Below are positions 26,172 through 39,065 of a stretch of DNA of 64,000 nucleotides, piece after piece (within the stretch, counting starts at the first letter, position 1; every line of letters begins with the position of its first letter). The stretch lies in contig JAWACY010000002.1 of NCBI GenBank assembly GCA_038896535.1, forward strand, positions 128,001-192,000, given 5' to 3'. The DNA comes from Candidatus Anstonellales archaeon. Lineage in GTDB: Archaea > Micrarchaeota > Micrarchaeia > Anstonellales > J096. The position numbers and the translations under genes were made by a program. The notes beneath the pieces are model-generated. The model did no database searches, was not told where the DNA came from, and saw only the letters and a list, made by a program, of their open reading frames with translations.

Positions 26172-26323
26172 TGCCGCGGGTGGGATTCGAACCCACGACC
26201 TCCAGATAGCCCAAAGCCAAATTATAAATTTATAAATTAAATTCAAACATCATTGCATAAGCTCAGCACTCATAGATATATGCTTCCATGAGTCTGGCGT
26301 TCTACCAACTAAACTACCGCGGC
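26172..26323 (-). tRNA. tRNA-Met(CAT), elongator type, 79-nt intron at 37/38 (26208-26286)
   Basis: Acceptor GCCGCGG/CCGCGGC-A, anticodon stem CCAGA/TCTGG, T-loop GTTCGAATC; BHB formed by CTCA/TGGG helix, two 3-nt bulges and AAGC/GCTT intron stem. Confidence 0.93.
26208..26286 (-). ncRNA. Candidate intron-encoded box C'/D' methylation guide
   Basis: Guide TCTATGAGT (26276-26268), G, CTGA (26266-26263), GC-TTAT-GC hairpin, ATGATGT (26253-26247). Confidence 0.6.
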
Positions 26324-26374
26324 ATTATTTTTTATTAATGCAAATGATTTAAATAATTTTACACAAATCTAATC

Positions 26375-38471: not shown

Positions 38472-39065
38472 ATGGCAATAGAAACATCAATGGAAGAGCT
38501 TAATGAATTGCTCGGCCCAATAAAAGAAGGAGACATTATATTAATAACATTTAATGATAAAAATACTGCCAGGATATTCAGCCAATATCTAGTGCCAAAA
38601 AAAGGGAATGCAATAATAATAAGTACAGATTTTAAACCTGATACAATAAATGCAAATGCAATTTTTATAGATGCTTATTCATTAGAGAGAGGGGTTAAGC
38701 CAAGAGAAGGGGATAGAGCAGTTTATGTTAGTTCCATTAATGATATATCATTGGAAACATCACAACTCATTTCTGATAAGCAGATAAATGCTGTTATCAT
38801 TTTATCTATTTCAACATTGTTAAAAAAGAATCCAAAAGATGCTGTTATGAGATTTATAGATCTAATATCTGCAAGAATAAAGGAGACTGGTGGAGCTTTA
38901 ATATTATTATCTGATGAAAAGGGGGAAGATATTGATACACTTGAAGCATTAGCAAATATAAATATAAAATTAACGACAAAAGATAATAATGTATTATTAA
39001 CAAGCAATGCTTTTCCATTTCCACTTGAATTAATTATTTTTGCTGATAAAATGGTGGTAAAATGA
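38472..39065 (+). CDS. Degenerate RecA/KaiC (RAD55)-like protein
   Basis: TSMEELNELLG..EGDIILI, FIDAYS, VIILSISTLL layout; no intact Walker A. Confidence 0.6.
   Translation: MAIETSMEELNELLGPIKEGDIILITFNDKNTARIFSQYLVPKKGNAIIISTDFKPDTINANAIFIDAYSLERGVKPREGDRAVYVSSINDISLETSQLISDKQINAVIILSISTLLKKNPKDAVMRFIDLISARIKETGGALILLSDEKGEDIDTLEALANINIKLTTKDNNVLLTSNAFPFPLELIIFADKMVVK

Follow-up and report, generated by a model that had tools for sequence, protein, structure and literature searches.

The locus studied here is an intron-bearing tRNA gene of a Candidatus Anstonellales archaeon, located in a window of 64,000 nt (JAWACY010000002.1, positions 128,001-192,000) to which the positions below refer unless another contig is named, and read on the minus strand. 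The intron of this gene carries a candidate box C/D-type guide aimed at the wobble base of its own tRNA, which is the subject of this analysis. The 152-nt gene at 26172..26323 (-) scored 61.9 bits with the Rfam tRNA model, with an 82-nt gap within the anticodon loop; ARAGORN missed it in default mode and, with introns allowed, reported tRNA-Met(CAU). Reading of the sequence divided the gene into a 5′ exon with nucleotides 1-37 (26287..26323; anticodon C34, A35 and U36 at 26290..26288 and G37 at 26287), a 79-nt intron at the canonical 37/38 position (26208..26286) and a 3′ exon with nucleotides 38-73 (26172..26207; A38 at 26207), the latter also delimited by Rfam. On the minus strand, the 5′ exon reads GCCGCGG UA GUUU AGUUGGUA GAAC G CCAGA CU CAU G before the 79-nt intron, and the 3′ exon reads A UCUGG AGGUC GUGGG UUCGAAU CCCAC CCGCGGC A, giving an acceptor stem GCCGCGG/CCGCGGC, an anticodon stem CCAGA/UCUGG and an anticodon loop CU-CAU-G...A. 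The splice sites lie in a bulge-helix-bulge structure (BHB) of the canonical hBHBh′ form, as derived by hand, in which C32UCA35 pairs with UGGG (26213..26210), AAGC/GCUU forms the outer helix and the bulges, of 3 nt each, are U36 G37|G and C U|A38. The 3′ strand of this splicing motif, GCUU-UGGG-CU, occupies 26208..26217.

The source genome, which is 91% complete and comprises 5 contigs with a total of 751,790 bases, contains 43 tRNA genes as found by ARAGORN with introns allowed, two of them having the anticodon CAU. The one elsewhere in the genome (G000 C1:412751-412825) has A1-U72 together with GGG/CCC in the anticodon stem and is the initiator tRNA-Met. The tRNA-Met of the window is not an initiator, because it has G1-C72 and an anticodon stem without GGG/CCC, and since a tRNA-Ile(UAU) gene is present, a CAU-type tRNA-Ile2 is unnecessary; the window gene is thus the only elongator tRNA-Met found in this genome. 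Its 79-nt intron is by far the longest tRNA intron of the genome, with the other five having 15-25 nt.

Within this intron, the 9-nt guide UCUAUGAGU (26268..26276) is followed by one unpaired G (26267), a D-box strand CUGA (26263..26266), a GC-UUAU-GC hairpin (26255..26262) and a C-box strand (26247..26254) consisting of a 3-nt bulge AAU, then GA, then UGU (AUGAUGU). The target strand, A31-C32-U33-C34-A35-U36-G37-G(i1)-A(i2) (26285..26293; i1 and i2 being the first two intron bases), spans the exon/intron junction. Guide and target can form nine pairs, from A31 to intron base 2 and including one U.G37, with the G at 26271, fifth base upstream of CUGA, facing C34, and the 9-bp helix was found in both the minimum free energy and the centroid folds of the 152-nt precursor (RNAfold; z = -3.56). 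With the spliced tRNA, this helix ends at position 37, because the guide C would there oppose A38. These findings agreed with the first-pass annotation of this DNA, which had been made from the letters alone: all of the elements UCUAUGAGU, G, CUGA, GC-UUAU-GC and A-AUGAUGU were where it had placed them, the range it had claimed, 26208-26293, corresponds to A31 through the last intron base, and its 9-nt guide with one G:U pair and the fifth base opposite C34 was recovered in full.

On the sequence, the boxes are best read as the two strands of a kink-turn (K-turn). NUGA would then be its non-bulged D strand, with the stem following directly, and the strand after the stem its bulged C strand, in which GA is preceded by three unpaired bases, the last of them U; the GC-UUAU-GC hairpin would be the canonical stem, and the usual terminal K-turn stem appears here to be closed by a loop. 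As in canonical archaeal C/D small RNAs (sRNAs), the boxes of the window intron, CUGA - GC/UUAU/GC - AAU-GA-UGU, thereby stand in K-turn register, and the guide is complementary to its target with C34 opposite the fifth base from the D box. Unlike those sRNAs, the window intron is without a second box pair (C′/D′) and without two guide spacers of ~12 nt: it has neither a CUGA downstream of the C box at guide distance nor an RUGAUGA upstream of the guide. The single K-loop lacking a terminal C/D pair, as first described from the letters, was also what we found, and introns of only 38-48 nt in other families leave no room for a second motif. A terminal C/D pair forming a second K-turn, looked for by eye in the window and in the introns of relatives, was rejected, since the CUGA(G) that some relatives have close to the 3′ end belongs to the BHB, as the complement of CUCA with a C before it; it has no C-box partner, and the window has UUGG. 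A reversed K-turn orientation was likewise rejected, with the strand after the second GA having no partner upstream of the guide, and a pairing of D-box position 1 with C-box position 6 was unsupported by eye.

The boxes alone are weak evidence, because the bare box pattern (ATGAGNNNTGAN{3,30}ATGAT), expected 0.20 times per window, was found twice. The second match, at 38747-38770 (-) and reading ATGAGTTGTGATGTTTCCAATGAT, is most likely due to chance. Rfam gave no significant family besides tRNA in the window intron, the best snoRNA-type match being snoR66 (13.9 bits, E = 4.2), and likewise found only tRNA significant at the loci of Nanoarchaeum equitans, L013, L073 and L130. What lifts the module beyond chance is instead its location in a tRNA-Met intron, its complementarity to the anticodon loop and its conservation, with covariation, in relatives.

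The spread of the module was assessed by two routes. By exon similarity, using BLAST of the whole precursor against 60 relatives followed by ARAGORN and a simple locus scan, 14 intron-bearing tRNA-Met(CAU) loci were obtained, window locus included, of which 12 carried the same module, i.e. (N)AUGAGU, a single base, NUGA, a short loop or a hairpin, and xAU-GA, with order and spacing kept; at one of them (L011) the module is degenerate. By pattern, a strict search with CTCATN{2,32}ATGAGTNYTGA, which misses the D boxes GUGA and AUGA, gave matches in 42 of the 176 genomes of the order, with 34 verified in tRNA-Met context and 8 having non-tRNA-Met matches only. A relaxed pattern, CTCATRN{1,32}ATGAGNNNTGAN{3,33}ATGA, matched in 182 of the 401 genomes of a class-wide sample, to be taken as an upper figure as some of the listed matches are plainly not tRNA genes, and its control, the same pattern read backward, in 4 genomes. 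Among genomes at least 90% complete, the relaxed pattern matched in 90/188, and by family it matched in 55/76, 49/94, 41/83, 7/9, 12/30 and 6/16, with families without any match including 0/21 and 0/8; the pattern tallies include two genomes flagged as unpublished (G382 and G244). An intronless anticodon arm of the same stem type was seen in 0/401 genomes. Conservation of guide and boxes in relatives, proposed as a check in the first-pass annotation, was thus found at 12/14 loci and in 182/401 genomes, with the boxes in the form of NUGA and xAU-GA.

For the anatomy of the module, 89 loci were tried and 82 could be parsed automatically (L063, L075, L113, L120, L122, L124 and L133 could not). 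These 82 introns were 38-115 nt long, with a spacer between splice site and guide of mostly 10 nt. The D box was AUGA in 36, CUGA in 27, UUGA in 17 and GUGA in 2, and the C-strand bulge was GAU in 41, AAU in 27 and UAU in 11, while the occurrence of a bulge ending in U followed by GA in 82/82 is built into the parsing rule. The unpaired base between guide and NUGA was G in 47, U in 26 and A in 9, and with this middle base varying we dismissed GUGAUGA, as formed in relatives by the guide end, G and AUGA, as a mere look-alike of a C box. A K-turn stem reaching from the base adjacent to NUGA to 3 nt before GA had at least 2 bp in 79/82 introns and at least 3 bp in 68/82, as compared to 8% and 3%, respectively, when the sequence after the D box was shuffled and searched identically.

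Covariation was analyzed in an alignment of 70 of the 82 introns (spacer 4-17 nt, box distance 6-19 nt), counting the two helices named above. The AUGAGU guide core was invariant in all 70 aligned relatives. Paired cells amounted to 90.5% versus 81.6% in column shuffles (0/500 as high), and the covariation score was 0.221 versus 0.073 in shuffles (0/500 reaching it); kinship of the sequences inflates these figures, yet the slid controls, which keep that kinship, still dropped to 31-44% paired cells. Compensatory changes were seen at all three pairs of the K-turn stem, with pair 2 for example being CG in 40, GC in 21, AU in 2 and UA in 2, and the pair between i1 and guide base 9 was AU in 24, GC in 9, GU in 7 and UA in 6 introns, with 21 unpaired. 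The guide also follows its target at the other end, where G31 goes with ...GAGC in N. equitans and one relative and A31 with ...GAGU in 81 others.

These data bear on the partner of the guide. Guide base 9 and guide base 10 both find a partner in intron bases 1 and 2 in 46/75 introns, and in A38/U39 of the spliced tRNA in 13/75, where about 14% would be expected by chance for two pairs. Because the extension of the guide covaries with the first intron bases, the partner is probably the unspliced precursor, in line with the longer pairing to that form that had been noted for the window intron, the spliced helix stopping after 37. The guide spacer is in some introns as short as 2-6 nt, so that the pairing in effect would be a hairpin within one molecule.

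For fibrillarin, the rule is that the nucleotide to be modified faces the fifth base upstream of box D. This +5 register, with C34 as the base in question, was found in all 12 module-bearing loci obtained by exon similarity, and also in the N. equitans locus, which had been found by exact string. When 0-6 bases were allowed between guide and UGA within the family, 7/7 tRNA-Met matches had the +5 spacing; three further matches were at other spacings and none of these was verified as tRNA. Two of these three, with spacing 1 and in genus g4, were discarded, since ARAGORN found no tRNA there and the one of the two stretches that was read, in G010 (L172), looks protein-coding. These spacing-free register checks are supportive but small.

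The guide fold and the BHB are mutually exclusive, because the guide and the 3′ strand of the BHB both need C32-A35, and where the intron is compact, the BHB strand itself directly follows the GA of the C box, as in ...AAU GA CGAG AA|A. Constrained folding of five anticodon arms gave -23.1 kcal/mol for the guide fold and -17.4 kcal/mol for the BHB fold in the window (L006), with the corresponding values being -42.0 and -38.1 in N. equitans (L088), -18.2 and -19.0 in L013, -12.6 and -13.0 in L073 and -12.9 and -9.9 in L130. Judged by these modeled energies, the element appears to switch between two states, one for guiding and one for splicing.

The element is not new in kind, and the literature check called for in the first-pass annotation gave a precedent within DPANN archaea, as the 66-nt intron of elongator tRNA-Met in N. 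equitans was reported to be a stable and abundant C/D-like RNA (Randau 2012, PMC3491384). According to the same paper, that RNA has a D box matching the consensus, a C box that deviates from it once and a GC hairpin, 'potentially guiding RNA methylation', with 'no prediction' given for its target in the supplementary table (PMC3491384). In the N. equitans locus, we read CCCGG CUCAUA | GCAUGGGC UAUGAGC U CUGA ccc GAAA ggg GAU GA U ... UGAG AA | A CCGGG, which has in common with the window the host tRNA, the 37/38 position, the order of spacer, guide, single base, D box, hairpin (3 bp in N. equitans), C box and BHB strand (there UGAG), and C34 at +5; the two modules also fit one alignment. N. 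equitans differs in that a C of the guide is paired with G31 and in that the C box is followed by an additional GC hairpin of 6 bp, whereas the 3′ part of the window intron is AU-rich. By its sequence, the window element can hence be placed in the same family as the N. equitans intron RNA. The order of N. equitans furthermore includes a second genome with the G31/C combination, with 2 convincing matches among 5 raw ones in 21 genomes. The passages of Randau 2012 considered here do not discuss a single-motif design or its spread (PMC3491384). In the open literature searched, the tRNA-Met intron guide was found solely in that paper and in citations of it, and neither C34 as a named target nor the spread of the module was found there, on which subscription papers and supplements outside that search may say more. 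It is the target assignment, the single-motif design in cis and the spread that are worth a test at the bench.

Another close system is the tRNA-Trp intron guide, which was reportedly described by Clouet d'Orval 2001 and Singh 2004. It is a C/D guide in the intron of euryarchaeal pre-tRNA-Trp, as in Pyrococcus (sR50) and Haloferax volcanii (PMC7994747, PMC3326292, PMC2584109, PMC4033218), and works with L7Ae, Nop5 and fibrillarin according to this literature. Shared with the window are a BHB-flanked 37/38 intron, a guide complementary to its own anticodon arm and a wobble base being aimed at. That intron, however, has C/D and C′/D′ motifs with two guides, directing methylation to 2′-O-methylcytidine at position 34 (Cm34) and to Um39 (PMC2584109), whereas the window intron has one motif, one guide directed at position 34, and tRNA-Met as host. 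A tRNA-Trp self-guide is impossible in the window genome itself, because its tRNA-Trp intron of 15 nt leaves no room for one. Cm34 of archaeal elongator tRNA-Met is made by C/D ribonucleoproteins (RNPs) (PMC4033218, PMC6601510), with guides acting in trans being known as haloarchaeal sR-tMet (Joardar 2011; PMC4033218), a Pyrococcus sRNA (PMC7994747) and human SNORD97/SCARNA97 (PMC6601510). These address the same nucleotide in the same tRNA as would the window element, sR-tMet, by the title of its report, also on precursor tRNA; they are separate genes, whereas the window guide lies inside the intron of its own presumed substrate.

The source genome encodes all three of fibrillarin (249.6 bits), a Nop protein (127.4 bits) and L7Ae (97.5 bits), which answers the proposal of the first-pass annotation to look for these three genes. 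A strict pattern also gave six canonical two-guide C/D sRNA candidates with consensus boxes and 12-13-nt spacers (C1:18892(+), C1:~143824(-), C2:105548(+), C2:~6343(-), C3:36841(+) and C4:~14769(-)), and 0 in the reversed or shuffled genome; with six such sRNAs, RNA-guided methylation would be in use in this genome. The Nop5 gene (G000 C2:234180-234875, L003:1297-1995) lies outside the window, starts at the coiled coil and matches Pfam Nop only, and the fibrillarin gene (C2:4758-5387) is not adjacent to it.

We propose that the intron is a single-K-turn box C/D guide for Cm34 of its own precursor, alternating with the splicing fold, and would assign this reading a probability of roughly 0.7. 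It builds on what is shown above, namely the elements in the sequence and their conservation, covariation in the two helices, the folds predicted and the presence of the protein genes, and the self-guiding tRNA-Met intron suggested by the initial inspection is supported by the conservation and the covariation with the precursor. In this mechanism, the guide (N)AUGAGU would fold back onto A31-U36 of the anticodon loop and in most cases also onto A37 and intron bases 1 and 2, and NUGA, the short hairpin and xAU-GA-N would form a K-turn, or a K-loop where the stem is absent, as the predicted site of L7Ae. Nop5 and fibrillarin would then position the methyltransferase on the fifth pair from the D box, converting the 2′-OH of wobble C34 to Cm34, and methylation of C34 would occur before splicing, with the guide fold thereafter giving way to the BHB. 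Protein binding, methyl transfer, the order of these events and action within one molecule as opposed to between two precursors are here what we infer.

Several observations weigh against this reading. The boxes are degenerate, with a D box CUGA in only 27/82 introns and the C box kept as xAU-GA alone; they are weaker outside the genus of the window, where they are reduced to NUGA and xAU-GA. The invariant duplex is only 6 bp (A31-U36), position 37 being paired in 45/69 introns and i1 and i2 in about two thirds, and most of our counts derive from patterns that fixed the +5 spacing, the spacing-free tests being small (12/14 and 7/7). Two genomes of genus g5 (L015 and L016) have a tRNA-Met intron of 31-32 nt without the module, and 0/6 genomes of that genus, which has the smallest genomes of the family, match the module patterns, with Nop present in 6/6; a crude scan of five of them gave no stand-alone replacement guide. 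Matches to ATGAGTNNTGA, tried as the pattern of a trans guide in g5, were as frequent as in the control, and no upstream C box was seen at the 30 of 45 sites examined.

The window tRNA, moreover, has G37 (26287) and not A37, which 81 of the 82 parsed homologues have. This G37 and the surrounding sequence are identical in contigs of four DNA runs from two studies. N6-threonylcarbamoyladenosine (t6A37) is expected in tRNAs reading ANN codons and would be excluded by G37.

The protein side adds a further point on the same side of the balance, as Nop5 is here a protein of 232 aa that aligns to residues 112-365 only of Pyrococcus furiosus Nop5. Its N-terminal domain is therefore missing, and it is this domain that holds fibrillarin in solved complexes. 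Nop reading frames were short in 39 of 41 Nop-bearing relatives as well (open frames 233-436 aa). A split Nop5, with an upstream open reading frame supplying the N-terminal domain, was considered and rejected, as that frame has no Pfam match and is absent beside Nop5 in the loci of 13 relatives. The missing domain was not found elsewhere in a search with Pfam NOP5NT, a model that is uninformative here as it fails on archaeal control genomes too. The short Nop5 is on its sequence a caveat for any fibrillarin-based reading, and equally so for the six canonical sRNAs. A single-site C/D RNP, finally, has been reported to be active but not site-specific, with both motifs needed for specificity, whereas single-site constructs made earlier had not been viable, as stated in the same report (Hardin and Batey 2006, PMC1635284). 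Their construct is like the window element in having one C/D motif and one guide, but was synthetic, and the short tether of the window element to its target may supply the missing ruler.

Some of the same observations would also suit a structural or checkpoint element without methylation, where an L7Ae-bound K-turn and an anticodon-masking hairpin would keep the precursor from adopting a spliceable fold or chaperone its folding, thereby timing splicing or preventing the unfinished tRNA from entering translation. The mutual exclusion of guide fold and BHB at close energies in five introns, the overlap of the C box with the BHB strand in compact introns, the presence of one K-turn only, the reported lack of specificity of single-site RNPs (PMC1635284) and a Nop5 without its N-terminal domain can all be accommodated by such an element. 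A mask would, however, need no exact one-base spacing between helix and NUGA, C34 was at +5 in every tRNA-Met module seen, and C34 is the residue methylated by C/D RNPs in other archaea and in humans (PMC4033218, PMC6601510). We consider this explanation in its exclusive form rather unlikely; being compatible with methylation, it is more an addition than a rival. We find it quite unlikely that the guide is instead the excised, probably circular intron, with mature tRNA-Met or some other RNA, for instance rRNA, as its substrate in trans, as partly suggested by the first-pass annotation. The N. equitans intron does accumulate as a stable, abundant RNA (PMC3491384), archaeal tRNA introns circularize, and the tRNA-Trp intron guide was later shown to be trans-acting (PMC7994747). 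Disfavoring an excised circle on the mature tRNA is the covariation of the guide extension with the first intron bases, pointing to the unspliced precursor, while pairing with A38/U39 was about as frequent as chance; with spacers of 2-6 nt, as in some introns, pairing within the molecule could also hardly be avoided, the guide changes along with nucleotide 31 of its own tRNA, and for the N. equitans intron no rRNA target came out of Plexy and snoscan (supplement of Randau 2012). Action in trans between two precursors may nevertheless occur.

A different chemistry at C34, such as N4-acetylation by another recruited enzyme, could be argued by analogy with two yeast C/D snoRNAs that guide rRNA acetylation, with C/D snoRNPs guiding base acetylation (by the title of a reference in PMC7994747), with the N4-acetylcytidine at position 34 of many H. 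volcanii tRNAs and of E. coli elongator tRNA-Met (PMC2584109), and with the Nop5 lacking its fibrillarin-binding domain. Nothing in the sequence suggests acetylation, though acetyltransferases were not searched for, and the +5 register is the rule of fibrillarin, making this explanation very improbable in our view. A chance resemblance in an AT-rich intron, for which the two box matches in the window at 0.2 expected might speak, we regard as practically refuted by the module being conserved in N. equitans as well as in several families, by the two helices covarying, and by the shuffle and backward controls.

The proposed Cm34 guide also has a stricter version, in which it acts strictly in cis with a single K-turn, exclusive guide and BHB states, the tether as ruler and a Nop5 without N-terminal domain, and which as a whole we hold to be possible but doubtful. 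If it were true, the order 'methylate C34, then splice' would be hard-wired into the precursor, the site would be measured out by the tether to the substrate in place of a second box pair, and the short Nop5 would imply a non-canonical route of fibrillarin to the RNA; with about half of the class sample carrying the module, this would amount to a lineage-wide form of minimal RNA-guided methylation. Given that a single-site RNP is non-specific, either the tether gives specificity, or two precursors pair via Nop5, or there is no methylation. The design of the element makes it a natural case on which to test whether a single motif suffices for methylation to be site-specific, and whether a guide acts within its own molecule. 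The Cm34 reading in its general form proposes C34 of the precursor itself as a testable target for an intron RNA whose published description, in N. equitans, named none. The element is, moreover, not peculiar to one species, but widespread and covarying among the tRNA-Met genes of this group of ultra-small archaea. For annotation, the module would account for the length and conservation of these tRNA-Met introns. Since N. equitans grows in co-culture, both Cm34 and the intron's effect are accessible to study in that species.

Additional observations were made on the same and on other tRNA genes. A promoter-like box A, TTTAAA, is located at 26348..26353 (-), 25-30 nt upstream of tRNA position 1 in the window, and a TTTAAA hexamer ~26 nt upstream of nanoarchaeal tRNA genes has been described (Randau 2012, PMC3491384). 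The tRNA-Ile(UAU) gene (G000 C2:208746-208846) has a 25-nt intron (18 nt in genus g5), and AUA is apparently decoded with this tRNA in place of a CAU-type tRNA-Ile2, as also at L023-L025. The 25-nt intron of tRNA-Leu(CAA) in the window genome was tried as a guide and rejected, having the BHB strand only and no NUGA box. In relatives, introns of 66-143 nt were found in CUUCUA-loop tRNAs (tRNA-Arg UCU) at L026, L030, L031 and L032, two of which ARAGORN had mislabeled as Pyl, and one such intron begins with UGCAAUGAUUG, which is C-box-like in appearance. At L009 (G005 C11), the tRNA-Met gene (C11:22928-23050) is situated ~1 kb upstream of the Nop5 gene (C11:24086-24757), a closeness that is probably coincidental because the two are 80 kb apart in the source genome. 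Several tRNA-Met genes of relatives, finally, are interrupted at another place beside the guide-bearing intron, with a second intron in the T arm at L047, L048, L054, L059 and L060 and an interrupted 5′ half at L055, L062 and L063.

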